Assembly (NCBI GenBank): GCA_035438705.1
Contig: DAORIV010000001.1
Location: 43,593 to 107,592 of the forward strand
Length of the DNA stretch: 64,000 bases
Direction of reading: 5' to 3'
DNA from: Parcubacteria group bacterium
GTDB taxonomy: Bacteria; Patescibacteriota; Minisyncoccia; Phycocordibacterales; DATDWN01
The notes below the pieces were generated by a model. That model saw only the letters and a program-made list of their open reading frames with translations, was not told the DNA's origin and did not search any database. Made by a program: the position numbers and the translations under genes. Positions 10,273-62,208 of the stretch are shown in pieces. Each line of letters starts with the position of its first letter. The first letter of the stretch is position 1.

Positions 10273-10569
10273 ATGAAAAACATTTTACCAAACGACATAA
10301 TCAAAGAGTGGGGATTGCAATCTTTGCCACAAGAAAAACAACTTGAAATGGTTGAAAGAATAGGGAAGATAATATATCAAGCTCTTATGGTCAGATCATT
10401 AGACATACTTTCTTTAGACGAGCAGGAAGAATTTGACGAGCTGTTAGATCAAGATTCGACTACTCCAGATGATGTTTTGGGTTTTTTACAAAAGAAAATC
10501 AAGAATTTCGACAAGATAGTTTTGGAGGAAAGAAGGAGTCTAAAAAATGATTTATTGATTGAGGTTTGA
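10273..10569 (+). CDS. hypothetical 98-aa acidic protein
   Basis: ORF starting 4 nt after the large protein's stop; likely co-transcribed. Confidence 0.45.
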   Translation: MKNILPNDIIKEWGLQSLPQEKQLEMVERIGKIIYQALMVRSLDILSLDEQEEFDELLDQDSTTPDDVLGFLQKKIKNFDKIVLEERRSLKNDLLIEV

Positions 10570-10572
10570 GGT

Positions 10573-10601
10573 TTGACTATTTCATTATTTTTGTCTAGTA
10601 T
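10573..10601 (+). promoter_or_regulatory. promoter TTGACT-17-TAGTAT for tuf
   Basis: matches the TTGACA-17-TAGTAT element recurring at 15437 and 19316. Confidence 0.5.
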
Positions 10602-10721
10602 AGTAATGCCGTCGGTGTTTTTTTGCATACGGTCCATTTTTAAGTTCCCAAAATTCAGGTTTTCTCGAACACTGAGTTTTTGGAATTTCTCTCTGGTATT
10701 TATATACAGGAGGAAGACAAA

Positions 10722-10742
10722 ATGGCAATTATTAATTATTAA
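10722..10742 (+). other. mini-ORF MAIINY preceded by GGAGG (8-nt spacer) in the tuf leader
   Basis: the only clear SD-like motif seen in the window; 6-codon ORF ending 16 nt before the tuf ATG. Confidence 0.2.
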
Positions 10743-10758
10743 TTAATTTATAAATATT

Positions 10759-11955: not shown

Positions 11956-11997
11956 GCCACAGCGTTTCCAAATTTGGTCAATCTCATTGGCTAATAT

Positions 11998-12025
11998 CAA
12001 AAAACCACCATGAGGTGGTTTTTTG
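11998..12025 (+). terminator. rho-independent terminator AAAACCACC-ATGA-GGTGGTTTTTT
   Basis: hairpin plus T-run after tuf. Confidence 0.65.
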
Positions 12026-12044
12026 ATATTTATAATAAAAACAC

Positions 12045-12073
12045 TTGAAATAAAAACACATATCTGTTAGTAT
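12045..12073 (+). promoter_or_regulatory. promoter TTGAAA-17-TAGTAT upstream of rpsJ
   Basis: hexamers with 17-bp spacer. Confidence 0.4.
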
Positions 12074-12095
12074 TCTGAAATCAACAAATTGACAT

Positions 12096-12473
12096 ATGGC
12101 AACTAAAGAAACAACAAAAAAAGCACCTGCAAAGAAAGCTGTAAAAGCTAAATCTAACCCAGATGTTATTTCAAAACTTAGAATACGTGTAAGAGCTTAT
12201 GAATATAAGATTCTAGATGTTTCTGTAAGACAAATCATAGATACAGCTCTTAGATATGATGCTAAAGTAGAGGGTCCTATACCACTTCCTACTGAAGTTA
12301 AGAAATACACTGTAAACCGATCATCATTCGTTTACAAAAACGCTAGAGAGCAGTTTGAGATGCGAGTTCACAAGAGAGTTATCGACATACTAAACCCAAC
12401 TCCAAAGATTATGGAGGCACTGACAAACTTGTCGCTACCTTCAGGAGTAAACATCGACGTAAAGATAATCTAA
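12096..12473 (+). CDS. rpsJ: 30S ribosomal protein S10 with N-terminal K/A-rich extension
   Basis: S10/NusE core (RIRVRAYEYKILD...). Confidence 0.9.
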   Translation: MATKETTKKAPAKKAVKAKSNPDVISKLRIRVRAYEYKILDVSVRQIIDTALRYDAKVEGPIPLPTEVKKYTVNRSSFVYKNAREQFEMRVHKRVIDILNPTPKIMEALTNLSLPSGVNIDVKII

Positions 12474-12476
12474 ACT

Positions 12477-12500
12477 AAAAACCACCGGTAGGTGGTTTTT
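12477..12500 (+). terminator. terminator AAAACCACC-GGTA-GGTGGTTTTT
   Basis: hairpin plus T-run after rpsJ. Confidence 0.6.
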
Positions 12501-12523
12501 AGTTTTGTTTATGATAATGTGAT

Positions 12524-12763
12524 TTGGGGTTATTAATAGTGCACAAACTTATAATTGGGAGTTTTACCAAGCGAGAAATTGGCGAGGTATATACATCTCT
12601 AACTGATCACAGAAGAATTCTTCACAAAGGTCAGAGGTTTAAAGTTGTAGGTATAAGTAATCTAGAAGATTGGATTGCTTGCATGAAAGCTTTGGGCAGT
12701 GAGCCTTACTGGGAAGAGATTGCTATACCTTGTGATTTTTACTACGAAATTGAAACGGACTGA
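12524..12763 (+). CDS. hypothetical ~75-aa protein between rpsJ and rplC (start uncertain, TTG/GTG)
   Basis: ORF with its own downstream hairpin AACGGAC...GTCCGTT + T-run (12754-12790). Confidence 0.3.
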   Translation: MGLLIVHKLIIGSFTKREIGEVYTSLTDHRRILHKGQRFKVVGISNLEDWIACMKALGSEPYWEEIAIPCDFYYEIETD

Positions 12764-12794
12764 CAGGTGTTGTCGGTCCGTTTTCTTTTAGGAC

Positions 12795-12823
12795 TTGATA
12801 TTAAATTCACTTTCTGCTAATGT
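12795..12823 (+). promoter_or_regulatory. promoter TTGATA-17-TAATGT upstream of rplC (followed by ~105-nt leader)
   Basis: hexamers with 17-bp spacer. Confidence 0.4.
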
Positions 12824-12933
12824 ATGCAAATCGCCTTTTGGGGCTAGTTTTGAAGGAGACTATCGATGGGCAATGTTGAGGAAAATCTTTCCTCGTTACT
12901 GTCCGAAAAATGTCTCCAAATTAAATAAATAAT

Positions 12934-13542
12934 ATGAAATTTTTATTGGGTACAAAAGTAAATATGACACAAATCTTCGATGAGAAGGGTATTGTGCATC
13001 CTGCAACTGTTATAAAAACAGGTCCTATGACTGTTACTCAAGTAAAGACAGTTGAAACTGATGGATACAATGCTGTCCAAGTAGGTTTTGGTGTAAGAAA
13101 TGCAAAGAATATAAACAAAGCTCTTAAGGGTCATATGAAGGAAGGAAATTTTGCAAACTTAGTAGAATTCAGATTGGATGATGTTTCTGGATTTAAAGTT
13201 GGAGATGTTTTACCACTGTCATTTGTTGCAGGAGATGTAGTTACAACTTCAAGTATTTCAAAAGGAAAAGGATTCCAAGGAGGTGTTAAGAGACACGGTT
13301 TCAAAGGAGGTCCAAGATCTCACGGTCAAAAGCACTCAGAGAGAGAACCAGGTTCACTTGGAGGAGGAGGAAGAGATGGAGGAAGAGTTGCTAAGGGAAA
13401 GAGAATGGCAGGAAGAATGGGTGGGGATGTTATTACCTCAAAAGGTCTTACAATAGTTTCTGTGAATGCAGATACAAATGAAGTATTTGTTAGAGGTGCA
13501 GTGGCTGGTAGAAAAGGAACTCTTGTAGAGATTCTAGGTTAG
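12934..13542 (+). CDS. rplC: 50S ribosomal protein L3
   Basis: L3 family, 202 aa. Confidence 0.93.
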   Translation: MKFLLGTKVNMTQIFDEKGIVHPATVIKTGPMTVTQVKTVETDGYNAVQVGFGVRNAKNINKALKGHMKEGNFANLVEFRLDDVSGFKVGDVLPLSFVAGDVVTTSSISKGKGFQGGVKRHGFKGGPRSHGQKHSEREPGSLGGGGRDGGRVAKGKRMAGRMGGDVITSKGLTIVSVNADTNEVFVRGAVAGRKGTLVEILG

Positions 13543-29203: not shown

Positions 29204-29245
29204 TAATACCATAAAACCACCTCTACGGTGGTTTTATGGTATTAT
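29203..29245 (+). terminator. terminator with long stem (ATACCATAAAACCACC-TCTA-CGGTGGTTTTATGGTAT)
   Basis: core AAAACCACCTCTACGGTGGTTTTA repeats at 31587. Confidence 0.6.
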
Positions 29246-29274
29246 TAGAATATTAAAATTTAATTAATCAAAAT

Positions 29275-31581
29275 ATGAATTTTAGGATTCTCTTTTTATT
29301 TGCGTTCATACTTTTAACAACACCATTTCATGTTCAAGCTAAAGATTTGTACGTAGACCCAAATGGAAATGATGCTGTTTCTTATGCAAACAACTCAGCA
29401 TCGACTCCTTGGAGAACTATCGGTCGTGCGGCATGGGGAAGTACGAATAGAGAGGCAAGAAATGGTTCTGAGGCCGCTAGAGCAGGAGATATTGTTATAG
29501 TTAATGCTGGCACATATACAGGAGTCGGAACGAACTCTAGAAATGAAATTTTGTATTACCAAGAAAACAATGGTACAGCTGGGAATCCTATTACGTTCAG
29601 AGCAAATGGTACTGTAAATCTAACTCAGACAGGGGCGGGTGCAATGATAGGTTCATACAGAAGAAATTATATTGTATGGGATGGTTTCACAATAAATGAA
29701 GCAACTGCAGCATCTGTGGCTGATACTGGCCCTGTTACAGTGTATGAGTGTACTGGATGTGTATTGCAAAACTTAAATATAAATGGGAACGGAGATGGAA
29801 ACGGCAGAATGGACAACCACAATGGAATTAGAATTGAAGCATCAAATAATATAACTATAAAAAATAATAGAATTCAAAATGTTTACACAGATCACAATGT
29901 TTATAACGGTGCTTGTGTTATGACATACTCCAGTCAGGGTCTGACTATTGAAAACAACCATTTTTCTGAATGTGGTTCAGGTGTGTTTATAAAAGGAGGT
30001 CCGTTCGGATCTCAAATCACAAACACTTCATATATAAGATACAACCTTTTTGAAAATGTGTATGAAAATAGAGGAGGGGATCTTTCTGGCGGTTGTATAG
30101 CACTTCATGCTGGGGCACCATATTCTGCATCAGCACCAATTCTTATATATCAAAACATCATGAAAAATTGTGGTTGGGCAGGTGTGAGAATATGGGCTTT
30201 TGATAGCACTAATCCGCTAAACAATCCGACTAACGCAAAAATATTTAACAATGTAATAGATAATGCTACAAACGGTATTTGGGTTACAGGAGGCCTTTTA
30301 ACAAATGCTGGTCATCAGTTTTGGAATAACATTATTACAAATACTACTGGAGATGCTATAGCATTTGGAACAACCCCATCAGAAAATGTAAAGAGTCGTT
30401 TTGATTCTGAACACAACCTATTCTATAGCAATTCTAGTATTGCTCAAGATGCTCCAGGAACTAGATATACTTTGGCAACATGGAAAGCAACCGGCCAAGA
30501 TTCTGCTTCGCCTGAGTCTGTAAACGCAAATCCACTATTTATAGGTCCATCATCAAATAATTATAGACTTCAGTCTGGTTCACCAGCATCATCTCTGGGT
30601 AGAGCTATATATGGAATTGGTGGTGTAACTGGTGCTGTAATACCTGTTGGAGCATATATAACAGGCAGTGAGCTGATTGGAATATCTAATGGAGGCAATA
30701 TACAAAACTCTAATCCAATTACACCAGTAACACCAGCCCCGACAGCAGATATTAGGATAAATAATTCCTCAACGGGTGTAAGTGTTAATGTGGGAACTTC
30801 AGTCGTTATTTCTTGGACATCAACTAATGCTACTTCTTGTACTGTTTCACCTAGCTCATGGAGTGGAACAGCTGGGACACAAACTGTCACCCCTATTTCA
30901 AGTGCCACTTATACCATTTCTTGTTCTGGTGCGGGTGGTTCGGTAACTGATTCTGTTTCAGTGACCGTAAATCCTGTTGTTGTAGATCCGGTACCAGTTA
31001 CTCCAGTTGCAACATCTACAGAAGAGTGGGTATTTTGTTCGAATGAAAATGGAACATGTACTTTTTCTGGAACTAAGGATGTTAGATATGGAGCACAAAA
31101 TTCATATAATATAAGAACAGTAACTGGTTCAATAGGATGTAACAATGATGTTTTTGGAGACCCTATTTTAAATGTCGTAAAGCAATGTCAATATAAAAAT
31201 ATTGTCACAAATACTACACCCACAACTACAACTCCAACAACTCCGACTGCCACAACAACTACTAGTAATGATAATTTAATTAAGGTTGGAGATAGAATAA
31301 AAACAACAGCTACAATAAATGTAAGATCATCTGCTGGGGGAAGAATTGTGGGTACTCAAAGAACTGGTAGGGTAGGAAGTGTTACCACAGGACCTTCTAC
31401 AGTTAGTAGGAGGGATTGGTTTAGAGTTAATTTTGAATCAGGAGTAGATGGTTGGGTTGCGGTGGATTATATAACTAAAATTTCTACAACCACACTTTCT
31501 CAAGAAGAAATATTAAATCAAATTGCAAATCTGTTCATACTTATTAAACAACTTCAACAACAACTTAATAATCTAAGATAA
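29275..31581 (+). CDS. secreted multidomain protein: signal peptide, right-handed parallel beta-helix (pectate-lyase-like), PKD/Ig-like domain, T/P linker, SH3b-like domain, C-terminal amphipathic helix
   Basis: beta-helix repeats (NNRIQN, NNHFSE, IMKN...), WTSTNATSCTVS..YTISCSGAGGS Ig-like, WFRVNFESGVDGWV SH3b-like. Confidence 0.65.
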   Translation: MNFRILFLFAFILLTTPFHVQAKDLYVDPNGNDAVSYANNSASTPWRTIGRAAWGSTNREARNGSEAARAGDIVIVNAGTYTGVGTNSRNEILYYQENNGTAGNPITFRANGTVNLTQTGAGAMIGSYRRNYIVWDGFTINEATAASVADTGPVTVYECTGCVLQNLNINGNGDGNGRMDNHNGIRIEASNNITIKNNRIQNVYTDHNVYNGACVMTYSSQGLTIENNHFSECGSGVFIKGGPFGSQITNTSYIRYNLFENVYENRGGDLSGGCIALHAGAPYSASAPILIYQNIMKNCGWAGVRIWAFDSTNPLNNPTNAKIFNNVIDNATNGIWVTGGLLTNAGHQFWNNIITNTTGDAIAFGTTPSENVKSRFDSEHNLFYSNSSIAQDAPGTRYTLATWKATGQDSASPESVNANPLFIGPSSNNYRLQSGSPASSLGRAIYGIGGVTGAVIPVGAYITGSELIGISNGGNIQNSNPITPVTPAPTADIRINNSSTGVSVNVGTSVVISWTSTNATSCTVSPSSWSGTAGTQTVTPISSATYTISCSGAGGSVTDSVSVTVNPVVVDPVPVTPVATSTEEWVFCSNENGTCTFSGTKDVRYGAQNSYNIRTVTGSIGCNNDVFGDPILNVVKQCQYKNIVTNTTPTTTTPTTPTATTTTSNDNLIKVGDRIKTTATINVRSSAGGRIVGTQRTGRVGSVTTGPSTVSRRDWFRVNFESGVDGWVAVDYITKISTTTLSQEEILNQIANLFILIKQLQQQLNNLR

Positions 31582-31616
31582 AAAATAAAACCACCTCTAC
31601 GGTGGTTTTATTTTTG
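31581..31616. terminator. bidirectional terminator AAAACCACC-TCTA-CGGTGGTTTTATTTTT
   Basis: identical core to the 29215 terminator; flanked by convergent genes. Confidence 0.6.
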
Positions 31617-32654: not shown

Positions 32655-33867
32655 TTGTTACTCTGAGTATTTCATCTATGGTTGTGACTCCATTCATAAC
32701 TTTTTCCAGCCCATCCATTAGTAGTGTTTTTGTATTGTTTCCTAAAGCAATTTTTTTCAATTCATTTAAACTTTTTTTATCATGAATTGCTTCTCTAATT
32801 TTATCGTCAATTATTAGTATTTCGTTAATTGAAATTCTTCCAGAGTATCCGCTCATACCACATCTTTTGCAACCCTCACCACGATATAAATTTATTACAT
32901 CTTCTGTCCTGTGGGATTTAATGAATTTTTTGTCTATATCGTTAGGTTTATATGTTGATTTACAGTATGTACATATTTTCCTAACCAATCTTTGTCCAAT
33001 TACAAGACTTAGTGTGGATGAAATTAAATACTCTTCAACACCCATATCAATTAGTCTGGGTATTGTGCCTATGGCATCATTTGTATGAATGGTCGATAAG
33101 AGTAGATGTCCTGTGAGAGCCGTATTTACTGCAATTCCAGCTGTTTCTTTGTCTCTTATTTCTCCAACCATTATAATATTGGGGTCTTGGCGCAAAATAC
33201 TCCTAAGTCCGTTTGCAAAACCAAGTCCATTTTTAGTATTAACTTGTATTTGTTCTACATCATCTATTGCATATTCAATAGGGTCTTCTATGGTCACAAT
33301 TGAAACATCAGGGGAATTAAGTAAATTTATTAAAGAATATAAGGTTGTAGTTTTTCCGGAACCTGTTGGTCCAGTAGCTAGTACCATGCCGTGAGGTTTT
33401 TTAAGGCATCTTATAATTTTTTCTTGATCACTATCACTAAAACCTAATTGTTTTAGCGTCACTTTTTGATTGTCCGTTGATAAAAGTCTCATTACTACAT
33501 TTTCTCCATAGTATGTTGGTACCATAGAAACTCTAATATCAACAAAATTATCTGGCTCAACAATAGAATATCTAAAACGTCCATCTTGTGCAGTTTGATG
33601 TTCATCAGTGCGTAGTTTACAGAGAACTTTAATTCTGGAAATTATTTCTTCATGAGTTTTCTTTGGGAGAAAAAATGGTTTTTGTAAAACCCCATCAATT
33701 CTAAATCTTACTTTTACAGTATCTGAGTTTGGGTCAATGTGGATATCTGAGACCTTATTTTTAATTGCTTTTTCAATTAGGTATTCAATTAGGTTTATGA
33801 TAGAAATATCTAGGTTTTCTTCAATTTCCTTTTCTAGTTGAGCCTGTTTTTCCTCAATGTTGGGCAT
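32647..33867 (-). CDS. GspE/PilB-family secretion ATPase, short form lacking N-terminal domain (ComGA-like)
   Basis: Walker A ATGPTGSGKTTTLYS, Asp box, Walker B, C-terminal CxxC pairs; 406 aa. Confidence 0.8.
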   Translation of the reverse strand: MPNIEEKQAQLEKEIEENLDISIINLIEYLIEKAIKNKVSDIHIDPNSDTVKVRFRIDGVLQKPFFLPKKTHEEIISRIKVLCKLRTDEHQTAQDGRFRYSIVEPDNFVDIRVSMVPTYYGENVVMRLLSTDNQKVTLKQLGFSDSDQEKIIRCLKKPHGMVLATGPTGSGKTTTLYSLINLLNSPDVSIVTIEDPIEYAIDDVEQIQVNTKNGLGFANGLRSILRQDPNIIMVGEIRDKETAGIAVNTALTGHLLLSTIHTNDAIGTIPRLIDMGVEEYLISSTLSLVIGQRLVRKICTYCKSTYKPNDIDKKFIKSHRTEDVINLYRGEGCKRCGMSGYSGRISINEILIIDDKIREAIHDKKSLNELKKIALGNNTKTLLMDGLEKVMNGVTTIDEILRVTNE

Positions 33868-33942
33868 GTTGGGTAGGGTTATTCACCGAACTCTACTCCC
33901 ATTCAAAGGTAAACACAAGTATTTGATGATACAATTGTCTTT

Positions 33943-36900
33943 ATGAAAAAAGTATATTTTATTGTATTTATATTGGGAGCATTATTGTTTAATAATTCAG
34001 TTTATTCTGCAACTGCGACATTTCAACACGGGGTCAATGGTTATACGGGTGGAGAGGACTTAGAAATAAGTAGTGATAACCCAAATACCAATTATATTTC
34101 AGGAGGAAGTAATTATTCTGATAGAAGTGGACTGCGTTTCTGTGGTTCGAAGTGTAATAAAATACTCTTACGTTTTAATTCTCTTGGAATAACGGGCAAC
34201 ATAACAAATGTTAGGCTCGAACTAAAAGAAAGTGGAAGACAAGGTGGGGCAAGTAATATATATGCATATAAAATATCTAAAAATGACTGGGTAAATAGTC
34301 AAACTACTTGGAATACATATAAGACTGGAAGCAATTGGGCATCTGCAGGAGGTGATATAGGTTCAGTATTATCTACAATATCTGCACCTGGGACAAACAA
34401 TTGGGCTAGTTTTGATCTCGGTGCAAACTGGACTATTACAGAATTACAACAAAATGGTATATTAATTGATACTGATATACCCGGATGGAATTATGTCTGG
34501 TTTTATACGAATGAGGCAAGTAATGTAACTGATAGACCAAAACTTATTGTTACCTATGATGGAACAACTCCCACAACCCCAACAACTCCAGCTCCAACTG
34601 TTACAATTTCTGCTTCACCTACATCTATAACTTCAGGTGGAAGTTCAACACTAACTTGGTCTTCAACAAATGCGACATCTTGTACTGCAAGTGGTTCATG
34701 GACTGGAAGTAGAGGAACTTCAGGAACACAATCAACTGGAACACTTACAACAAACTCAACTTTTACACTTTCATGTAGTGGAGCTGGGGGCACAACGAAT
34801 CAGTCTGTCACAGTAATTATCAATTCAACAACACCAGTAACACCAACATCTGGAGGATTAGAAATAGATCTTTCTTATGTAAATCAAAGTTCTCCAGAGT
34901 TTATAAGATTTAAGTCTGTAGTAGATGCTGCGTTAGCTGGAAATCCTGATTATGGTTTTTCAGGCGAACATGCTGCTCTTATGTATAAAATTACTGGTGA
35001 TGTAAGGTATGCTGATTATGCCATCGGTTTTATTGAGAATTGCCAAAATTCAAGATACGCAGGTGCTAATTGTGGAGTACAAGGTGCTGAAGCTTTAATT
35101 TCTAATGGAAACAGACCTCCAGTTGCTGGGGATTCGTATCTTGAAGTTGGTGATATTATAGGTTCTCTTGCACTTGTATATGATTGGGCTGGGTCTAGAA
35201 TGACACAATCTCAGAAAACAAGATGGGCTAATTATGCAAACCAGACAATTTATAATGTTTGGAATCCGAATCAAGCTTCATGGGGAGGAGTATCTCATCC
35301 CTGGACAGGATGGTCTATAAATAATCCTGGAAATAACTATTATTACAGTTTCGTTCAAGCGACAATGTACTGGGCTCTTGCAACAAATGATACAACACTA
35401 CTTTCTTTTGTTAGAAATCAAAAATTACAACCTTTGGTAAATTATTTCAATCAAATCCCAGGTGGAGGAAGTCTTGAAGGAACTGGTTACGGAACTGCTC
35501 ATATGAGAATGTTTCATCTGTATCAGGTCTGGAAAGATTCAACAGGAGAGGATCTTGCAAATGCGAATAGCCACTTAACAGATAGTATAAGACTTTGGTT
35601 ACATCAAACAACACCAAATAGAGCTTATTATGCACCAATAGGAGATTTATCTAGAAGTTCTTTCCCAGATCTATTTGATTATCATAGAAGACTTGTGCTT
35701 GAAGCTCGTAATCTAACAAATAATAACTCTGCAAAAGATACTGCTTCATGGTGGTTAAATAATATTTCTGTGACACAAATGTCTAGACGTATTGATTCTC
35801 AATATGATTTATTACCGAAAGGAATAAATACTAGTGTTGCGCCAAATGAACCTCTGTCATATAGAGCAAGCGGGATAGGTAGAGTATTTGCTAGAACAGG
35901 TTGGGATACAAATGCATTATGGATGTCATTTGCTGCAGGAAAATATAATGAAAGTCACGCACATCAAGATCAAGGATCGTTTACTTTAGCAAACAATGCA
36001 TGGCTTGCTGTTACAAATAATATTTATACGAATAGTGGAATTGAGCAGTCAACCGATTACCACAATATTATCAGATTTGTTCAAAATGGATCAGTAGTCC
36101 CACAAAGAGAGGGTACTGAATCTGTGATGACAGTAAATCAACTTGGAACAAATGGTGAAGTAGATGTAACTGGAAATATCACTCCAGCTTATGGAGGAAG
36201 TTCAGCTGTCCAAAGTTGGGTTAGAAATATTAGATTTTCTGGAAGGAAACTCACAGTTAATGATGGCTTTTCTGTGGCAGCAGGGACTCAAGCAATATTT
36301 CAAATTCATGTACCTGTTCAACCTGTCGTGAGTGGAAACACAATAACAGCAGGTAATTTAAGAGTAAGAGTCCTTGTTCCAGCATCTCCTACGATAACAG
36401 TAGTAAATCAAGGTAGGTATAGAATTGATATAAGTGGTGGAACAAATCAATATGTTGTCGAACTTTCGGATCAAGCAATTACTGGTACGACGATAATACC
36501 AGCACCCCCAGTTTCAGGTAGTCCAACAACTCCCACAACCCCAACAACTCCAGCTCCAACTGTTACAATTTCTGCTTCACCTACATCTATAACTTCAGGT
36601 GGAAGTTCAACACTAACTTGGTCTTCAACAAATGCGACATCTTGTACTGCAAGTGGTTCATGGACTGGAAGTAGAGGAACTTCAGGAACATTGTCTGTAA
36701 CCCCCACAACAACATCAACATATACATTGTCTTGTACAGGCATAGGCGGAAGTATAAATCAATCTACTACAGTTACAGTGAATACTGTGATTCCGACAAC
36801 ACCAGCATCAACACTATTTACATCAGGTCAAAGAGTTCAAACAACAGCCAACCTAAATGTTAGAGCAACTGCTTCATCAAACGGAACACTACTAGGCACG

Positions 36901-38799
36901 CAAAGCACTAGTGCATTAGGAACAATCACAGGAACATCAGTATATGCAAACAGTATAAACTGGTGGAATGTTAACTATGATACTGGAGTAGATGGGTGGT
37001 CATCAGAGCAATTCTTGCAAAATTATGTTGCGCCTACTACTCCAACAACACCTACTGCTCCGACACAACCGACAACACCAAGTGGCACAGGTAGTACTTT
37101 CTACCCTCCAATAAATACTAGTGACACATCAGATGCTCCTCTAATTAACTTTGCTGAAACATGGGCAAGAAACTGGAACTTTGGTGGACACAGTGTAACT
37201 ACTACAAACTGGAGTGGTTGGTGGGATTACAGTGATACTTCTTACGAGCCTTGGTTGTTCGATAGAGCATCAGTTGGTTACTATTTATACAAGAGAACAA
37301 ATGATTCTAAATGGTTAGATAAGTTTATGTCTGACTTTGCTTGGTACAGAGCAAGAATAGATGCAAATGGATTCTTTACACCTACATCCTATGACGATAA
37401 CAAATATGCTTACGTTAGACCATTTCTTTTATATGAAAGACAAACAGGTGACAATCAATATAGAAGTCAAGCACTAAATATTTATAATATGTGGCTTAGA
37501 GAATTTTCTAACACATATAGTACTTCTATTGGACTTTGGACTGAAAGAGAAATTGGTTTAGCTCTTGAAGTTGCTGTAGATTATTACGATCTTACAGGAA
37601 GTCAGGCAGCGCTTACTCGTGCGAATGCACTTGTTACTCAGTGGTCAGTTATGTCGGCAAATAATGGAGGTGCACCACTTCACACTGTAACTCAACATGA
37701 AGGTGGTGGGGGATCTCAAATGATTACTAGTCCGTGGATGAGTGCACTTTATTTTCAAGCTGCATATAAACTTTATGCATTAACCGGTAATACAGAAGTG
37801 TTACAACAAATAAGTAGATATGCTGATTGGATGGAGCAATATGGTTACTTCTCTGGAAATACAGTGGGGGTTTCAAGTGTTCCTACTGCAGCATATTATT
37901 TAGCTGGCCCAAACGGTCCTTACACTGCCGAGACACCTAGTACAGGAGATTTTTCTCACTGTTTAGATATCTCAAATATGATTAAGTTCGCAGTGGTTGC
38001 AAAACAAGCTCTTGGAGAGTCAACTACAGCAGTTGCAAACAGACAAGCACAATTAAAAACATGCGCAGCATATTATTTTGCTGACGCAACAAGAACTACA
38101 ACAAGTCTTCCAAGATACAGAGTAAATCCGGCCAGATCATTTAACTGGTGGGTGCGTTCAACAGTTGAGTACAGAACATCTGGAACAAACTCAACTCCAA
38201 TACCTACTCCAACAGTAACACCAACAATACCACCCACCACAACAACTCCAACTACACCTACATCAGGAGGAGCAGGTGGTGGAAGTTCAGCACCAAGTAC
38301 ACCATCTACACCAGTAACACCTACAACACCGAGTGCAGGGTCAGGAGCTGGGGTAGGTGGAGGAGGCGGAGTGCAAACTCCTAGCTTACCAAGTACAGGT
38401 GGCGGAGGAACATCTTCCACACCTAAACCAGTTATCACTCGCAATTTGTCACCAGGAACAAAGGGAACTGATGTAACACAATTACAAAACTTCCTAATCT
38501 CTACAGGATATCTAGCATCAGGACTAAACACAGGATACTATGGTAATGCTACCAAAGAAGCTGTACAGAAGTATCAATGTGCCACACTTAAACTATGTTC
38601 AGGAACACAAACAACTAATGGTTACGGAGTAGTAGGAACAAAGACAAGAACAGCACTAACTACAACAAACACTCCTGTGCAAACCATAACCTCTACACTT
38701 ACTGCAGAACAAAGAGTTGCAATACAGAAACAGATTAGTGATTTACTTGTAGTTGTCGCACAACTTATGGAGCAACTAAAAGCAATGCAGGGGAACTAG
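33943..38799 (+). CDS. giant (1618 aa) secreted multidomain protein: signal peptide, two near-identical PKD/Ig-like modules, heparinase II/III-like polysaccharide-lyase region, SH3b-like domain, second alpha/alpha-toroid-like region, T/P/G-rich linkers, C-terminal peptidoglycan-binding domain and amphipathic helix
   Basis: ESHAHQDQGSFTL (heparinase II/III-like H-x-H-x-D-x-GSF), PG_binding_1-like LSPGTKGTDVTQLQNFLISTGYL...TKEAVQKYQ, repeated Ig-like WSSTNATSCTASGSW modules. Confidence 0.7.
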   Translation: MKKVYFIVFILGALLFNNSVYSATATFQHGVNGYTGGEDLEISSDNPNTNYISGGSNYSDRSGLRFCGSKCNKILLRFNSLGITGNITNVRLELKESGRQGGASNIYAYKISKNDWVNSQTTWNTYKTGSNWASAGGDIGSVLSTISAPGTNNWASFDLGANWTITELQQNGILIDTDIPGWNYVWFYTNEASNVTDRPKLIVTYDGTTPTTPTTPAPTVTISASPTSITSGGSSTLTWSSTNATSCTASGSWTGSRGTSGTQSTGTLTTNSTFTLSCSGAGGTTNQSVTVIINSTTPVTPTSGGLEIDLSYVNQSSPEFIRFKSVVDAALAGNPDYGFSGEHAALMYKITGDVRYADYAIGFIENCQNSRYAGANCGVQGAEALISNGNRPPVAGDSYLEVGDIIGSLALVYDWAGSRMTQSQKTRWANYANQTIYNVWNPNQASWGGVSHPWTGWSINNPGNNYYYSFVQATMYWALATNDTTLLSFVRNQKLQPLVNYFNQIPGGGSLEGTGYGTAHMRMFHLYQVWKDSTGEDLANANSHLTDSIRLWLHQTTPNRAYYAPIGDLSRSSFPDLFDYHRRLVLEARNLTNNNSAKDTASWWLNNISVTQMSRRIDSQYDLLPKGINTSVAPNEPLSYRASGIGRVFARTGWDTNALWMSFAAGKYNESHAHQDQGSFTLANNAWLAVTNNIYTNSGIEQSTDYHNIIRFVQNGSVVPQREGTESVMTVNQLGTNGEVDVTGNITPAYGGSSAVQSWVRNIRFSGRKLTVNDGFSVAAGTQAIFQIHVPVQPVVSGNTITAGNLRVRVLVPASPTITVVNQGRYRIDISGGTNQYVVELSDQAITGTTIIPAPPVSGSPTTPTTPTTPAPTVTISASPTSITSGGSSTLTWSSTNATSCTASGSWTGSRGTSGTLSVTPTTTSTYTLSCTGIGGSINQSTTVTVNTVIPTTPASTLFTSGQRVQTTANLNVRATASSNGTLLGTQSTSALGTITGTSVYANSINWWNVNYDTGVDGWSSEQFLQNYVAPTTPTTPTAPTQPTTPSGTGSTFYPPINTSDTSDAPLINFAETWARNWNFGGHSVTTTNWSGWWDYSDTSYEPWLFDRASVGYYLYKRTNDSKWLDKFMSDFAWYRARIDANGFFTPTSYDDNKYAYVRPFLLYERQTGDNQYRSQALNIYNMWLREFSNTYSTSIGLWTEREIGLALEVAVDYYDLTGSQAALTRANALVTQWSVMSANNGGAPLHTVTQHEGGGGSQMITSPWMSALYFQAAYKLYALTGNTEVLQQISRYADWMEQYGYFSGNTVGVSSVPTAAYYLAGPNGPYTAETPSTGDFSHCLDISNMIKFAVVAKQALGESTTAVANRQAQLKTCAAYYFADATRTTTSLPRYRVNPARSFNWWVRSTVEYRTSGTNSTPIPTPTVTPTIPPTTTTPTTPTSGGAGGGSSAPSTPSTPVTPTTPSAGSGAGVGGGGGVQTPSLPSTGGGGTSSTPKPVITRNLSPGTKGTDVTQLQNFLISTGYLASGLNTGYYGNATKEAVQKYQCATLKLCSGTQTTNGYGVVGTKTRTALTTTNTPVQTITSTLTAEQRVAIQKQISDLLVVVAQLMEQLKAMQGN
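34565..34730 (+). repeat. intragenic direct repeat copy 1 (~166 bp, PKD/Ig-like module)
   Basis: apparently identical to 36526..36691 (by reading, and by identical antisense ORF translations). Confidence 0.85.
36526..36691 (+). repeat. intragenic direct repeat copy 2 (~166 bp)
   Basis: apparently identical to 34565..34730. Confidence 0.85.
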
Positions 38800-38805
38800 A
38801 GAAAT

Positions 38806-38834
38806 AAAAAAACCGCCACATAGCGGTTTTTTTA
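38806..38834. terminator. bidirectional terminator AAACCGCCACATAGCGGTTT with A/T runs
   Basis: between the giant gene (+) and the malic enzyme gene (-). Confidence 0.55.
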
Positions 38835-39989
38835 TTTGCTAACCTTTTTTACTGCATTTGCTACAGCTTTAGCAACTCTTTTATCAAATGGACTTGGAAT
38901 AATGTAACTAGGGGATAGCTCCTTGTAAGTGACTAGTTTAGCTATAGCTAAAGCTGATGCTAACTTCATTTCGGTGGTTATTTGTTTTGCACCACTATCT
39001 AATGCGCCCCGGAAAATCCCAGGAAATACTAAAACATTATTTATTTGGTTTGGGTAATCACTTCTGCCTGTTCCAAAAACTTTTATTTTGGTTTTCTTTG
39101 CATTCTCCATACTTATCTCTGGATTAGGATTTGCCAAAGCAAGAACTATTGGGTCTTTGGCCATTTTTTCTATCCATTCAGGTTTTAAAATATCTGCAAC
39201 TGAAACACCAATAAAAACATCAGCATCTTCCAGCACTTGTTCCAGGTTTCCTTCCATTGTCTTACTATTTGTTTTATCAGCAATAGCTTTTTTGTATTTG
39301 TTTAAGTCAGTTCTTTTTCTATGTAAGGCACTTTTACTATCTAACATGATAATATTCTTTGCATTCACGCCATAATCAATAAGTAGATTACATATTGCTA
39401 TTGCTGCAGAACCAGCACCGTTAATTATAGTTTTAATACTGTTCTTATCTTTTTTAACGACTTTTAATGCGTTTATTAATGAAGCAAGAACCACAATTGC
39501 TGTGCCATGCTGATCGTCGTGCATTACAGGTATGTTCAATTCTTTTTTTAGTCGTTCTTCTATCTCAAAACATTTTGGCGCTGAAATATCCTCTAAATTT
39601 ATTCCACCAAATCCAACTGAGATTATTTTGATTGTTCTAATAATTTCTTCTGTATCTTGTGTGTCTAAACAAATAGGGTAGGCATCTATTCCAGCAAACT
39701 CTTTAAATAATATTGCCTTACCTTCCATAACAGGCAGAGCACCGTAAGGTCCAATATTTCCAAGTCCCAGAACTGATGACCCATCGGATATTACAGCCAC
39801 AGAGTTTGATTTAACTGTGAGTTTATTAGCTAAATCTTTATTTTTTTTTAAAACTCTTGATACTTCTGCTATCCCTGGTGTGTATGCAACAGATAGCTCG
39901 TATTTATTAGTTACTTTTAATTTAGAATAAGTACCAATTTTACCTTTAATTTTTTTATGCAATTCAAGTGATTTTTTAAAATAATTCAT
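38832..39989 (-). CDS. NAD(P)-dependent malic enzyme (short bacterial form)
   Basis: YTPGIAEV, ISDGSSVLGLGNIGPYGALPVMEGK malic-enzyme motifs; start at MNYFKK (ATG 39987-39989); upstream in-frame extension to 40055 runs into repeat/hairpin sequence. Confidence 0.8.
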   Translation of the reverse strand: MNYFKKSLELHKKIKGKIGTYSKLKVTNKYELSVAYTPGIAEVSRVLKKNKDLANKLTVKSNSVAVISDGSSVLGLGNIGPYGALPVMEGKAILFKEFAGIDAYPICLDTQDTEEIIRTIKIISVGFGGINLEDISAPKCFEIEERLKKELNIPVMHDDQHGTAIVVLASLINALKVVKKDKNSIKTIINGAGSAAIAICNLLIDYGVNAKNIIMLDSKSALHRKRTDLNKYKKAIADKTNSKTMEGNLEQVLEDADVFIGVSVADILKPEWIEKMAKDPIVLALANPNPEISMENAKKTKIKVFGTGRSDYPNQINNVLVFPGIFRGALDSGAKQITTEMKLASALAIAKLVTYKELSPSYIIPSPFDKRVAKAVANAVKKVSK

Positions 39990-39992
39990 ACT

Positions 39993-40003
39993 GTGTTGGC
40001 GGG
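39993..40003. repeat. 11-bp direct repeat TGTGTTGGCGG (copy of the tRNA-Ser 3-prime end/flank; second copy 43133..43143)
   Basis: region reads GGCCCGCCAACACA on the minus strand, versus GGCTCCGCCAACACA at the intact tRNA-Ser 3-prime end. Confidence 0.6.
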
Positions 40004-40074
40004 CCACTCGGGTTAAGTACCGTCCGAGTGAGACGTTGTAAGGATATTTTAACACATTTATTGACGGTCAATTG

Positions 40075-40088
40075 AAGCACTCGGGTCA
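40075..40088. repeat. 14-bp direct repeat AAGCACTCGGGTCA (second copy 43105..43118)
   Basis: exact 14-mer at both ends of the GC-rich islet. Confidence 0.6.
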
Positions 40089-40234
40089 GGGTCTCAGTAG
40101 ACACGATAGACACTATAAAAAGAAAATCTAAAACTTATTTTTCTGTATAAAATATGATAGTATTATTAAAACACTTACCATTTACAAAACCAATTTTTTA
40201 TGATTATATAACCTCGGAGGTTATTTGAAAAACT

Positions 40235-40960
40235 ATGGAAAAACCCAAGATCTTACTTATCCACGGCTGGAACTATACGAACTACACATCCTCAGGATGT
40301 AAGAGTGCGTGGTCAAACCGATTAAAATTTGTGGAAGCATTGTCTCAACATTTCAATGTTGTGACTATCAACCTGCCTGGGTTTTGTGGTCAGGCCGATC
40401 CAGAAAAACCTTGGACTATTGATGATTATGTTGACCATGTCAACACGGTTGTCAGAGCAGAGAACCCGAACTTTGTCCTCGGATATTCTTTTGGAGGAGC
40501 GATTGTCCTTCGTTGGAAAAGCAGAACAAAAGATACAGTGACTGGAGTGATTCTTGTTTCTCCTGCAATTATTCGCAGGTACGAGAATAAGGATCTAAGT
40601 CTTGTTCAGGAGATTCTCAAGAAGGTTCTCCCAAACAGACTGATTTCTACTCTCAGGGATCTGTATCTAACACAGTTCGTGAAGAATCCGTATTACTCAA
40701 AAGCAACGAAGGTGATGCGCGAAACGTATCGCAATATCGTTGCTGTTGATTTGCGGAAAGACCTACAAGAACTTACCCAGCCAATCACGCTTATCTATGG
40801 TGAATTCGACAGTGCAACACCTGTCGAATTGGTCAAAGAGGTTCTTTCAAGCTCAAAAACGAAACACAAACTGAATGTGATTCCTGCTGGTGGGCATGAC
40901 ATTGCAAATTCTCACACAGCGGAGCTCATTTCCCTGATCACAAGAGAAATTGGAGGATAG
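40235..40960 (+). CDS. alpha/beta-hydrolase fold protein (esterase/lipase-like); GC-rich (~46%) relative to the genome
   Basis: LLIHGW ... GYSFGG nucleophile elbow, His near C-terminus. Confidence 0.65.
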   Translation: MEKPKILLIHGWNYTNYTSSGCKSAWSNRLKFVEALSQHFNVVTINLPGFCGQADPEKPWTIDDYVDHVNTVVRAENPNFVLGYSFGGAIVLRWKSRTKDTVTGVILVSPAIIRRYENKDLSLVQEILKKVLPNRLISTLRDLYLTQFVKNPYYSKATKVMRETYRNIVAVDLRKDLQELTQPITLIYGEFDSATPVELVKEVLSSSKTKHKLNVIPAGGHDIANSHTAELISLITREIGG

Positions 40961-40962
40961 AA

Positions 40963-42336
40963 ATGGTATTTGACCTTGAGACCTTAAGAAGAATCCTTCC
41001 GGATTCAAGATTTGTAAATTTGAGTGGTAATGAGATCTTCACAGTTCTCAATATCGCTCATCTAAAGCAGTTTGAAGCTACATCTTCAGAAGACAGAATT
41101 CTGTATTTCTGTGTGTATGAAGATGATCCTAATCTTATGGGTTGGTACAACAATCCATTTGACCGATCTCTCAACATTCAGAAAATCAGGACTGACGAGA
41201 GAGTTACTTTCGTTGTTGACCAGAGAGTCCCTGAAGACCGAGTTCATCGTATACGACACATTCGCGTCGGTAATATCTACGATGCGATTGATTGTATTCG
41301 CCGACACGTCCTATCCCAAATCAATCCTCAGGTGATTGGTGTGACAGGAAGTGTTGGAAAAACCACAGGAGTGGCTCTTATCCAAAGCATTTTGGAGAAG
41401 GGGTTGAGTTGCGGAAGGATATATTCAAAACGCCTCACTCCATTGACCTTGTCTTCGTGGCTGGTCAACTTTCTAGATTCATCACACCGTGTGTTGGCTC
41501 TAGAATATTCAATGTACCGAAAGGATCACATTGATAGACTGACTGACATCCTAACTCCTGATATTGGTGTATTCCTGAATGTGAAAAGGATGCATCTGGG
41601 AGTACAAGGGATAAACAGCTTGCAAGATATCGTTGAAGGCAAAGAGGCTCTGGTGCGTAAATCAAAGTTGGGAGTACTCAATATTGATGAGCCACTAGTG
41701 TCTCAACTCAAGAGGCATGGAGATCTGACTTTCTCACTTAGAGACAAGCAAGCAGATGCCTTCATATTCACTGATGGTGATGAAGCAGTGCTTATCTTGA
41801 ATAGCACGGGTCATGAAATCAGATTTGTGCCATACATCAAGACAAGTCTGTTTTACTACCAAGCGTCTGTTGCTGGTCTCATTGGAGTACAGTTCGGAAT
41901 TTCTCCTGAACTTATCACTAATGCTCTTGAGGATTTCAGACCAGCAGAAAACAGGATCAATTGGATTGATGTTAAGGGCCACCAAGTGCTGTTTGATGGT
42001 GATGTAACTGTAAGTGGCAGAATGGCCTCTCTATCAGAACATCACTACACAACCAGTATTTTGATGATCCATAGTTTTGACTTTGGTGAGGAAAATATCG
42101 ACTTGCAAGTCGATGATTTTTCTCAGGTTTTCTCAACATTTTCTGAAGTTAGAGTTCTAGACACTGAAGAAAATAGGACAATTATTTCAAAGTATTCATT
42201 GAGAAATATTATCTTTGTAACAAAAGATGACTTCCTCTCTGGACTTTCGAAATTTGAGTTCAAAGTTCTTCACTTCGGGACATACTTCAGGAAGTATAAG
42301 GACCTGAGTTTCCTCATGCAATTCATAGCCGTCTGA
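40963..42336 (+). CDS. Mur ligase family protein (MurF/MurE-like ATP-dependent amide ligase) with N-terminal extension; GC-rich
   Basis: GVTGSVGKTT Mur-ligase P-loop, central and C-terminal Mur-ligase-like regions. Confidence 0.6.
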   Translation: MVFDLETLRRILPDSRFVNLSGNEIFTVLNIAHLKQFEATSSEDRILYFCVYEDDPNLMGWYNNPFDRSLNIQKIRTDERVTFVVDQRVPEDRVHRIRHIRVGNIYDAIDCIRRHVLSQINPQVIGVTGSVGKTTGVALIQSILEKGLSCGRIYSKRLTPLTLSSWLVNFLDSSHRVLALEYSMYRKDHIDRLTDILTPDIGVFLNVKRMHLGVQGINSLQDIVEGKEALVRKSKLGVLNIDEPLVSQLKRHGDLTFSLRDKQADAFIFTDGDEAVLILNSTGHEIRFVPYIKTSLFYYQASVAGLIGVQFGISPELITNALEDFRPAENRINWIDVKGHQVLFDGDVTVSGRMASLSEHHYTTSILMIHSFDFGEENIDLQVDDFSQVFSTFSEVRVLDTEENRTIISKYSLRNIIFVTKDDFLSGLSKFEFKVLHFGTYFRKYKDLSFLMQFIAV

Positions 42337-43137: not shown

Positions 43138-43230
43138 TGGCGGAGCCGGATGGATTCGAACCATCGGTACCTTATTAAAGGGTACACCTCTTTAGCAAAG
43201 AGGCACGTTAGACCACTCTGACACGGCTCC
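43138..43230 (-). tRNA. tRNA-Ser (anticodon GCU), class II with long variable arm, CCA encoded
   Basis: GGAGCCG acceptor, anticodon loop TTGCTAA, T-arm GATGGTTCGAATCCATC, 3-prime CGGCTCCGCCA. Confidence 0.85.
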
Positions 43231-43968: not shown

Positions 43969-44055
43969 GGATAGGTGGATGAGTGGTTTAAATCAACGGT
44001 TTACTAAACCGTCGTAGGGTAAAACCTACCGAGAGTTCGAATCTCTCCCTATCCG
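43969..44055 (+). tRNA. class II tRNA (Ser-like, long variable arm) with anticodon loop UUACUAA, apparent anticodon ACU
   Basis: acceptor GGATAGG/CCTATCC, D-stem GAT/ATC, anticodon stem ACGGT/ACCGT, variable arm GTAGG..CCTAC, T-arm GAGAGTTCGAATCTCTC, discriminator G. Confidence 0.6.
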
Positions 44056-44058
44056 CAT

Positions 44059-60783: not shown

Positions 60784-62208
60784 ATGGCGGATGATAAAGC
60801 TAAAAGCGACAAACCTGCAGCGGGTGGAAGTGATCCATTTGTTGAAATTGTATGGACAATCCTAGCTATTTTGCTTTTGGTCACAGCAATAAACAGTATA
60901 TCTGCTTTTCTAAGTCAAAGTAAGTTTTTTTCTAAAGGTTGGAAGTCTTTAACACCACAAGGTTTGCTTGCATCTACAACTAAACCAATTTCTTCACTTA
61001 TAAACCCAATCGGTGCAAAGTTTATAGTTACCTCAAGTAATGCAGATATTTATAACACCCCAGGTGGAGAAAAAATTTCAACAAAAAAACTTGGAGATAA
61101 GGGGGTGATTGTGGGCGGTCCAGTTAATTACAATGGTCAAAAATATTGGCAAGTAAAGTTTGATGATGGTACAACGGGTTGGGTAAATGAAAAGGATATT
61201 GGTGCTATAGTGCAAAAAATTACTCCAATGAGTGAGATGGAAACTCTTATTGGCACACAAGTAGAGACAAATAAAGAGGCTAAAGTATATAGCAGACCTG
61301 GTGAGGATGAAATTGCAACTGTTCCAAAAGGAAGTAAGGCTATTATAATTGAAGGCCCTCTAATTGTAGACGGTGTGAAATACTGGCACGTCCGTTTTGA
61401 TGATGGTACAGAAGGATGGGTAGATGAAGATGCTTTGGATAGTTTGAGTGGAGAAAGGGAACCTCTATCTAAAAAACCAAGCCTAATTGGCGGGAATGTG
61501 GAGACTAGTAAAGATGGCACTAAAATTTATGATAGTCCTGGTGGGAATGTTGTGGGAACAAAAGAAAAAGGTGTGTCGGGTAAAATTATTGAAGGTCCTC
61601 TGGTTGTAGACGGTGTGAAATACTGGCACGTCCGTTTTGATGATGGTACAGAAGGATGGGTTTCTGAAAATGATTTAGTTTACGTGGAACAGGATAACAG
61701 TGGGATAATTTTAAGTATAGTTAAGTTTTTAAGTAACCTATTTTCATTTACTAAATTTTTGTTGGTTGTCGTTTCATTAGGATTAATATTTTGGATAGTT
61801 TATTTATTGAATGGAATAAATAGATTGGCTTCCGAACAAAATAAATTATTGTATCCAAATGGTAGTGTTTCAGAATTACCAAACACTGAGGTTGGTAATC
61901 CAAGATGGGAAAGGGTTCTAAGTCACACTATTTCTCAGAATGAAAATGATTGGAGACTTGCGATCATGGAGGCAGATATAATGTTAGGGGATTTGCTGGA
62001 AACAATGTCACTTCCAGGCAATACTATTGGTGATAAACTTAAAGCCATTGAGAAGTCTGATTTCCTTACACTAGATAATGCTTGGGAGGCCCATAAGGTT
62101 AGAAATCTTATTGCTCATGAAGGCATGAACCATAAAATTACTCAAAAAGAAGTAAATAGAGTTATTGATTTATATAAATCTGTATTTGATGAATTTAAAA
62201 TAATATAA
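60784..62208 (+). CDS. membrane protein with three tandem SH3b-like repeats, a second TM and a C-terminal domain containing an R-x4-H (HEPN-like) motif
   Basis: repeats ...GPLVVDGVKYWHVRFDDGTEGWV...; TM at ~20-45 and ~310-340; KVRNLIAHEG near C-terminus. Confidence 0.6.
   Translation: MADDKAKSDKPAAGGSDPFVEIVWTILAILLLVTAINSISAFLSQSKFFSKGWKSLTPQGLLASTTKPISSLINPIGAKFIVTSSNADIYNTPGGEKISTKKLGDKGVIVGGPVNYNGQKYWQVKFDDGTTGWVNEKDIGAIVQKITPMSEMETLIGTQVETNKEAKVYSRPGEDEIATVPKGSKAIIIEGPLIVDGVKYWHVRFDDGTEGWVDEDALDSLSGEREPLSKKPSLIGGNVETSKDGTKIYDSPGGNVVGTKEKGVSGKIIEGPLVVDGVKYWHVRFDDGTEGWVSENDLVYVEQDNSGIILSIVKFLSNLFSFTKFLLVVVSLGLIFWIVYLLNGINRLASEQNKLLYPNGSVSELPNTEVGNPRWERVLSHTISQNENDWRLAIMEADIMLGDLLETMSLPGNTIGDKLKAIEKSDFLTLDNAWEAHKVRNLIAHEGMNHKITQKEVNRVIDLYKSVFDEFKII
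61348..61421 (+). repeat. SH3b-repeat DNA copy A (~74 bp)
   Basis: near-identical to 61588..61661 (53-nt perfect core). Confidence 0.8.
61588..61661 (+). repeat. SH3b-repeat DNA copy B (~74 bp)
   Basis: near-identical to 61348..61421. Confidence 0.8.

Follow-up and report, generated by a model that had tools for sequence, protein, structure and literature searches.

The Tyr/His apparatus of the heparinase II/III-type enzymes is common to the polysaccharide lyase (PL) families PL12, PL15, PL17, PL21 and PL39 and to the dermatan sulfate epimerases (DS-epimerases); the uronate C5-epimerase DS-epi1 also has this apparatus (PMC11848413). In PL33, the family to which the PDB entries 8r6z-8r75 belong, the catalytic residues are N238, Y291 and H444 (PMC11848413). 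Polysaccharide lyases are reported to be present in most metagenome-assembled genomes (MAGs) of the Candidate Phyla Radiation (CPR) in one survey (PMC10031880). Here we present a gene from a stretch of 64,000 nucleotides (nt) of a Parcubacteria group bacterium (GenBank assembly GCA_035438705.1, contig DAORIV010000001.1, positions 43,593 to 107,592 of the forward strand), the whole of which is referred to as the window. The gene is a genuine one and codes for a very large, predicted secreted protein of 1618 amino acids (aa) in an ultra-small CPR/Parcubacteria bacterium. Members of the CPR (Patescibacteria) live on other microbes, and to our knowledge almost nothing is known of the enzymes that they use at the host surface. 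Judged from its sequence, the central domain of the protein is a heparinase II/III-type lyase domain, which belongs to an uncharacterised family of the clan and is remote from the characterised PL families. The protein as a whole is a new combination of known kinds of domain and not a new kind of system.

The domains were mapped by segment-wise Pfam scans, in which the bit score was compared with the cut-off of each family. Hepar_II_III_C (PF07940) is found at aa ~650-824 with 24.0 bits, exactly at its cut-off of 24. In a sequence search of the PDB with the whole protein, E was 1e-4 for the 'Heparinase' chains 8r75, 8r6z and 8r70 and 0.01 for heparinase II, and a profile of 46 homologues returned 8r75/8r6z at E 1e-9, heparinase II (PL21) at 6e-5 and heparinase III (PL12) at 1e-3. 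The motif ESHAHQDQGSFTL at aa 670-682 aligns with the catalytic NESHNHNDVGTFSL of the PL33 heparinase-type lyases; the original prediction, made from the letters of this DNA, had recognised a catalytic-region motif here, and this is borne out. The assignment of the central region to a non-enzymatic fold by a hidden Markov model search, which the same prediction had named as evidence against it, did not occur. Concerning the catalytic residues, the HMMER alignment places Y291 of PL33 on Y516 (EGTGY) and H444 on H672 (ESHAHQD), and N238 is placed on N464/N465 (NNYYY) by offset. N465, Y516, H672 and H674 are invariant among the 46 aligned homologues, which come from several phyla; N464 and D676 are each conserved in at least 90% of the alignment. 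By these alignments the Asn/Tyr/His apparatus is retained, as it is used for beta-elimination at uronic acids in PL12, PL15, PL17, PL21, PL33 and PL39. Similarity to PL33 at family level over the whole catalytic module was not found: the best profile match covers only positions 367-500, and the N-terminal piece scores 5.8 bits.

A search for the lyase family returned 1631 homologues, many of which are called heparinase II/III family, and about half of the listed homologues have a precomputed PF07940 match. Most are standalone proteins of ~570 aa, found in Xanthomonadales (Dokdonella and kin, ~52% identity) and Bdellovibrionota (up to 73%), and a few of ~850 aa also contain PG_binding_1. A literature search gave nothing specific on heparinase-type lyases in CPR. 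In Dokdonella koreensis (L004, CP015249.1) two convergent lyase paralogues, 8001-9713 (+) and 9946-11652 (-), are 49-51% identical to the window domain and lie inside a cluster for the biosynthesis of extracellular polysaccharide (EPS), with Wzx, CapK-like, GT4, polysaccharide deacetylase, two GT2, epimerases and Wza. No polysaccharide-gene context was seen around the homologues in two Bdellovibrionota contexts (three loci) or on a soil-metagenome contig. A convergent DUF4423 gene follows the lyase homologue in both Bdellovibrionota contexts (L005/L006 9774-10595; L008 11107-11958).

The open reading frame (ORF) is uninterrupted, starts with ATG and ends with a stop codon after 1618 codons, as the original prediction had it. 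The encoded protein is identical to NCBI HRH26617.1, named 'peptidoglycan-binding protein', from a Parcubacteria group bacterium MAG. The independent contig L001 of the Joint Genome Institute (JGI; sample 3300045392) is 100% identical across window positions 33859-39019, both copies of the repeat described below included. From the N-terminus, the protein comprises a signal peptide, a CBM96-like domain (CBM, carbohydrate-binding module), an Ig-like module, the heparinase II/III-type lyase domain, a further Ig-like module, an SH3b-like domain, an (alpha/alpha)6 barrel which we call domain F, a Thr/Pro/Gly linker, PG_binding_1 and a terminal helix. The features are as follows:

33943..38799, + strand: whole ORF, 1618 aa, HRH26617.1
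33943..34008, + strand: Sec-type signal peptide, aa 1-22 (MKK, hydrophobic core, VYS|AT), read from the translation without a predictor
34009..34557, + strand: CBM96-like domain (Pfam aa 42-161, 31.4 bits) with a Disaggr_repeat-like tail at aa 163-203
34563..34728, + strand: copy 1 of the exact 166-nt repeat, covering the TTPTTPTTPAP linker and the first half of Ig-like module 1
34588..34833, + strand: Ig-like beta-sandwich module 1, aa 216-297
34855..36477, + strand: heparinase II/III-type polysaccharide lyase domain, aa ~305-845
35332-35337 (N464/N465), 35488-35490 (Y516) and 35956-35970 (H672-x-H674-x-D676): candidate catalytic residues of the lyase domain
36525..36690, + strand: copy 2 of the exact 166-nt repeat
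36550..36795, + strand: Ig-like beta-sandwich module 2, aa 870-951
36826..37032, + strand: probable SH3b, aa 962-1030, from a sub-threshold SH3_3 match and conservation in CPR
37120..38262, + strand: domain F, aa ~1060-1440, an enzyme-like (alpha/alpha)6 six-hairpin barrel
38263..38454, + strand: Thr/Pro/Ser/Gly low-complexity linker, with LPSTG at aa 1482-1486 (38386-38400) inside it
38455..38658, + strand: PG_binding_1 (Pfam aa 1508-1545), 36 bits against a cut-off of 23
38659..38796, + strand: C-terminal tail, an amphipathic helix AEQRVAIQKQISDLLVVVAQLMEQLKAMQGN predicted from the sequence
38806..38832, no strand: hairpin AAAAAAACCGC-CACATA-GCGGTTTTTTT with A-run and T-run flanks, seen in the sequence and not listed by the consensus scan

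Domain F, a barrel of ~380 aa, was overlooked by the original prediction, as was the N-terminal CBM96-like domain, so that its list of domains was incomplete. With the barrel it probably missed one of the two halves of the enzymatic machinery. Searches with aa 1055-1445 gave 177 word-index homologues, and 466 representative clusters at E<=1e-3 in a library of 1.84 billion proteins; nearly all of the homologues are secreted proteins without a name that also contain Ig, cadherin-like, He_PIG or TSP1 domains. Weak Pfam matches to GH127, GH76 and GH88 occur across the family (GH127 in 33 of 55 members), and none reaches the family cut-off. The profile of the F family found no relative among PDB sequences at E<=10. 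The AlphaFold2 model, based on an alignment of 55 sequences, contains twelve main helices, with a predicted local distance difference test score (pLDDT) of 85.5 and a predicted template modelling score (pTM) of 0.86. Foldseek ranks GH76 first for this model (E 5e-6, TM ~0.5), followed by GH8, a PL27 lyase, YteR, AGE and GH88. Because the identity to every one of these structural relatives is at most 14%, membership of the six-hairpin superfamily is the only assignment that the model makes robust. Membership of F in GH127 is not supported: the match of the catalytic domain (PF07944, aa 1270-1302) spans only 33 residues and its 22.7 bits lie below the cut-off of 24.9. Nor is membership in the GH88/GH105 unsaturated uronyl hydrolases, for which the combination of a family profile match and, on the W-x-D helix cap, a catalytic Asp was sought and not found. 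The invariant residues of the F family include R1108, D1152, K1154, W1199-T-E1201-R-E1203 (37537-37551), H1252 and H1339, along with six further Arg at positions 148, 172, 313, 330, 339 and 344 of the domain alignment. In the AlphaFold2 model most of the invariant residues are found at the N-terminus of a helix or immediately ahead of it, and the conserved polar and aromatic residues also cluster at helix N-termini. From this placement we infer a catalytic pocket that may bind an anionic ligand, and the many invariant Arg suggest an anionic substrate.

The strongest evidence here for a substrate shared by the two enzyme-like domains is that they have been joined repeatedly. When the F profile was run against one genome for each GTDB species, 26 loci were found, with which the segments of the window protein were then compared by tblastn. 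SH3b, F and a lyase-family domain occur in tandem at seven of these loci (L009-L015), which belong to MAGs of Candidatus Magasanikbacteria/Magasanikiibacteriota and to three MAGs labelled Gammaproteobacteria. The lyase domains of these loci are 36-40% identical to that of the window, and in L012 (1677 aa) and L010 (1304 aa) the tandem was confirmed to be encoded by one ORF. The L012 lyase domain retains NNYYY, EGTGYG and QSHAHKDQGSF. Its protein has the order SH3b-F-lyase, the opposite of the lyase-Ig-SH3b-F order in the window, and its lyase comes from another subfamily; fusion of the two enzyme families has thus happened at least twice. This recurrent fusion in different CPR lineages argues for, and predicts, a common substrate. 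SH3b and F themselves form a conserved cassette, the SH3b being 55-66% identical in nine CPR loci. No lyase gene was found within 10 kb of the non-CPR F genes (L017-L034). The L012 protein (8291-13324) begins with three to four copies of a Cys-rich unit of ~45 aa (NGVCGSANNT..SSAPTSNLCSTGSASSVTGSGPWSWTCAGSNGGTSASCSA), contains two InlB B-repeat (Flg_new_2) domains, and has masked bases (X in the translation) near its N-terminus.

The remaining domains are binding and spacer modules. CBM96 (PF24517) is found at aa 42-161 with 31.4 bits, above the cut-off of 26; the founding member of this family binds alginate (PMC9971899). The C-terminal PG_binding_1 (PF01471, aa 1508-1545) of the original prediction is confirmed with 36.0 bits. 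The SH3b that it named is below threshold in Pfam (SH3_3, PF08239, aa 970-1026: 19.2 bits against a cut-off of 27, spanning profile positions 2-54 of 54), and the single segment has no match in the PDB; a profile of ten orthologous segments nevertheless has as its best PDB matches the SH3b domains of cell-wall hydrolases (E 0.007-0.14). The label of PKD for the two repeated modules was rejected at the sequence level: neither module has a Pfam match even at E<=10, and a WDFGDG-like core motif is absent from the module sequence. The best relative of the module among PDB sequences is an 'immunoglobulin-like domain protein' (9ncf, E 3e-4), and its model from 56 aligned sequences has eight strands and a pLDDT of 93.8; at fold level, PKD and a generic Ig-like sandwich are not distinguishable. 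The two modules, each of ~82 residues, are ~75-79% identical in protein overall and are probably generic Ig-like spacers. Concerning attachment, the signal peptide and PG_binding_1 make a secreted, peptidoglycan-tethered enzyme reasonable, so the cell-wall anchoring that had been proposed is plausible in this sense and unsupported as covalent anchoring. A sortase (LPXTG) anchor was rejected because the LPSTG is placed in the low-complexity linker, 132 residues including PG_binding_1 follow it, and there is no terminal membrane segment; the LPSTG at aa 1482-1486 is probably fortuitous.

The two Ig-like modules and the linkers before them share an exact direct repeat of 166 nt (34563-34728 = 36525-36690), in the same codon phase and with a spacing of 1962 nt (654 codons). 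Its 98-nt core occurs exactly twice in the window and in none of 100 shuffles. A perfect 166-bp repeat had been reported in the original prediction and it does exist, with the correction that the coordinates given there (34565-34730 and 36526-36691) are off by 1-2 nt and mutually out of register. The identical tract consists of the TTPTTPTTPAP linker and roughly the first 44 of the ~82 module residues; the second halves have diverged, and beyond the 166 nt gapless identity drops at once to 9-13 of 30 nt. The modules are therefore not identical at the DNA level as had been stated, and a very recent duplication is unsupported for whole modules. The sharp boundary of identity in mid-module argues instead for gene conversion or recombination. 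No evidence was found for phase variation, which had also been raised.

The supposition that the site is prone to recombination fared better in part, as a sister strain differs by one module of 252 nt with its junction in the repeat. The 90% cluster of the protein includes a form of 1702 aa (P0243), encoded on contigs L002 and L003 from two other JGI samples. Its gene differs from the 1618-aa gene by two synonymous single-nucleotide polymorphisms (SNPs; 34194 and 34455) and a single in-frame insertion of 252 nt, which amounts to one Ig module. The junction of the insertion can be placed anywhere in 34572-34728, within the repeat, and the extra module and module 2 are exactly identical over 213 nt. 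The flanks of the three-module form are 98-99.3% identical to the window strain upstream and 99.96% downstream, and L002, the three-module contig that reaches far enough upstream, lacks window positions 29238-31583. Module number thus differs between assemblies, and each form is tied to its own flanking haplotype. Recombination between the distant copies of the repeat would be predicted to delete 654 codons in frame, that is the lyase and one module. The corresponding pattern (upstream flank of copy 1 joined to downstream flank of copy 2) was found 0 times in metagenome_contigs, a collection without the locus in which the control for the normal allele also gave 0. When window positions 33664-42315 are compared with L002/L003, the strains diverge by ~2% on the upstream side of the repeat, with 21 mismatches in 1133 nt, most of which precede the start codon, and downstream there are only three mismatches in 7.7 kb. 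The divergence thus shifts sharply inside the gene, which suggests a strain recombination breakpoint within its 5' part or close to it.

Taken together, we think it probable that the protein is a Sec-secreted enzyme of a Parcubacteria (CPR) bacterium, tethered non-covalently to the wall, with two catalytic domains that degrade an acidic polysaccharide. PG_binding_1 and SH3b would keep it on peptidoglycan, its own or that of the host, the linkers and Ig modules would serve as spacers and the CBM would dock onto the glycan. The lyase would cut beside uronic acids by means of N465, Y516 and H672, and F would then cleave a second linkage or trim the lyase products, for which a role like that of an unsaturated uronyl hydrolase is one attractive possibility. 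The target would likely be a polysaccharide, extracellular or of the envelope, that belongs to the host or to the surrounding biofilm. The attack on a host capsule or wall suggested in the original prediction would be plausible. The repeat may be a gene-conversion tract common to the Ig spacers, within which homologous recombination would alter the number of spacers between strains (1618 aa vs 1702 aa). Several observations weigh against this reading. Alginate_lyase (PF05426, aa ~344-498) gives 18.1 bits, below its cut-off of 22.2, and is the only support for the N-terminal toroid. The equivalent of PL33 Y470, the fourth residue of the clan, is Tyr in the window protein and Trp in most of the family. 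Nor is lyase chemistry proven by the catalytic apparatus, which also occurs in uronate C5-epimerases such as DS-epi1. Finally, the EPS context in Dokdonella means that processing of a self-made polymer fits as well as an attack on a foreign one. A more far-reaching version seems doubtful to us: lyase and F would be a dedicated cassette, built at least twice by CPR and in both orders, to breach or harvest an acidic polymer of the host envelope or capsule; F would found a new CAZy family, as a hydrolase acting on the unsaturated ends made by the lyase or as a second lyase; and the Ig-linker repeats would be sites of in-frame recombination that vary the number of spacers or excise the lyase.

The protein could also serve its own cell, trimming or turning over an acidic polymer of its own wall or capsule, like AlgL, PslG or an autolysin, while held on its own peptidoglycan by PG_binding_1 and SH3b. 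The D. koreensis homologue (52% identical) with its convergent paralogue in the EPS cluster (Wzx, GT2, GT4, deacetylase, Wza) speaks for this, PG_binding_1 and SH3b are typical of autolysins, and the gene is a resident one whose G+C content at third codon positions (GC3) matches the genome. However, the EPS context is not general, as three other homologue loci in two further contexts are without polysaccharide genes; the window gene has pilB/pilC and a malic-enzyme gene as neighbours and no polysaccharide-synthesis genes beside it; and the arrangement of an N-terminal CBM and two catalytic domains is seen more typically in degradative exo-enzymes. We regard this role as unlikely. That the heparinase-like domain is no lyase at all, and acts as a uronate C5-epimerase at the polymer level or as an inert glycan binder in what is mainly an adhesin fixing the episymbiont to the host surface, we hold to be very unlikely. 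The fold and the Tyr/His apparatus are the same in DS-epimerases (PMC11848413), binding and spacer modules are many (CBM96, two Ig-like, SH3b, PG_binding_1) and genes of the type IV pilus type adjoin; yet the Asn/Tyr/His triad is invariant in 46 homologues of several phyla, which argues for kept catalysis, an extracellular epimerase is of no obvious use to a bacterium with reduced biosynthesis, and the recurrent fusion to a second enzyme-like barrel better fits a degradative pair. As for the repeat, the assembly may have merged near-identical copies or collapsed a tandem module, in which case the 1702-aa form would be the true one. A junction within the repeat fits homologous recombination between copies and is also the signature of assembly collapse: 166 nt exceeds usual assembly k-mers and many reads, the database fragments P0242, P0244 and P0248 of the cluster break at the repeats, a skipped R-x-R loop is a classic collapse, and the 252-nt unit and the two synonymous SNPs are the only differences between the two forms within the gene. 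The two-module form, however, is identical in two assemblies (the window and L001) and the three-module form in two other samples (L002, L003), and each has its own haplotype (upstream flanks of 98-99% identity, presence or absence of a 2.3-kb gene), which indicates different strains and not one population assembled twice; every assembly contains the repeat itself. An artefact of assembly is distinctly unlikely in our view.

Concerning the locus, the upstream neighbours of the gene are divergent genes of the pilB/pilC type, its downstream neighbour is a convergent malic-enzyme gene, and no polysaccharide-synthesis genes were seen beside it in the window. The hairpin at 38806..38832 is located between the convergent stop codons of the 1618-aa gene and the malic-enzyme gene and is probably a bidirectional terminator. 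A recent horizontal acquisition was rejected, since the GC3 of the domains (0.12-0.28) matches that of the neighbouring genes (0.18-0.23) and marks the gene as resident; its GC content of 39%, compared with 35% for the window, fits the Thr/Pro/Gly/Ala-rich composition. At 33926-33945 there is an extended -10-like sequence, TGATACAAT, which ends 7 nt before the ATG and was not in the consensus promoter scan. No Shine-Dalgarno sequence is visible before the ATG, and the transcript may be leaderless or nearly so.

Other features of the window were also noted. Within the segment that L002 lacks, the ORF at 29275-31581 (+) codes for a 768-aa protein, called 'right-handed parallel beta-helix repeat-containing' by NCBI, for which no Pfam or PDB sequence match was found. 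An SH3b-like domain at its C-terminus (31276-31473) and the SH3b of the 1618-aa protein are 37% identical. The gene is present in the window strain and absent from the sister strain L002, and it may code for a second secreted glycan enzyme that varies between strains. On either side of the insert (29238-31583) there is a copy of a terminator-like hairpin, AAAACCACC-TCTAC-GGTGGTTTT, at 29213-29235 and 31587-31609, of which L002 has one copy. A 474-aa protein at 60784-62208 (+) shows weak Pfam matches to SH3_3, GW and SlpA, and tblastn finds three SH3b-like segments in it at 60979-61677; it is another wall-binding protein of the genome. At 43969-44056 (+) ARAGORN reports a tRNA-Ser with the anticodon ACT (Rfam tRNA, 56 bits), which adjoins a normal tRNA-Ser(GCT) at 43138-43230; a Ser anticodon with A34 is unusual in bacteria. 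The ORF at 7219-10269 (+), with a TTG start, codes for 1016 aa without a Pfam match, and its exact sequence is absent from a collection of 15 billion proteins, possibly through a different call of the start codon.

The wall-tethered lyase with an unassigned six-hairpin domain is an expressible target, and its characterisation could define a new CAZy family and put a name to a polymer recognised by these episymbionts. What most merits further work is the recurrent lyase-F fusion. The module indel between strains provides a small, clean case of a CPR surface protein whose length varies through recombination. Since lyases are already reported to be common in CPR MAGs (PMC10031880), the surprise is limited and current views are not overturned.

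Compared with the described families, the window lyase shares with PL33 (e.g. BtPL33HA; 8r6z, 8r70, 8r75) and with PL12, PL15, PL17, PL21 and PL39 the motif (N)ESHxHxD..G(S/T)F in the C-terminal beta-sandwich, and its EGT(G/S)Y tyrosine and upstream Asn align with Y291 and N238 of PL33. The likeness to PL33 lies mainly in ~130 C-terminal residues, Y470 is not kept in the window family, and the window lyase is one domain of a multidomain, wall-binding protein of 1618 aa. Among its closer relatives, the standalone lyases of Dokdonella, other Xanthomonadales and Bdellovibrionota (P0001, P0017 etc.) are 50-73% identical over the full ~550-aa domain and have the same invariant residues, whereas they are single-domain proteins of ~570 aa without CBM96, SH3b, F or PG_binding_1, some Bdellovibrionota members adding TSP1 repeats. 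Domain F is linked to the AGE-type epimerases/isomerases, GH105 (YteR), GH88, GH76, GH8 and GH127 by the weak Pfam matches to GH127, GH76 and GH88; its identity to these six-hairpin enzymes is at most 14%, and the catalytic residues could not be mapped. Also close are the proteins of Magasanikbacteria with the order SH3b-F-(InlB B-repeat)-lyase (L012 8291-13324, 1677 aa; P0320, 1455 aa). They differ in that F precedes a lyase of another subfamily (36-40% identity), in lacking CBM96 and PG_binding_1, and in an N-terminus with Cys-rich repeats and Flg_new_2 domains, but they combine the same two enzyme-like families and the SH3b-F cassette in one polypeptide, with F 58-64% and SH3b 55-66% identical to those of the window protein.

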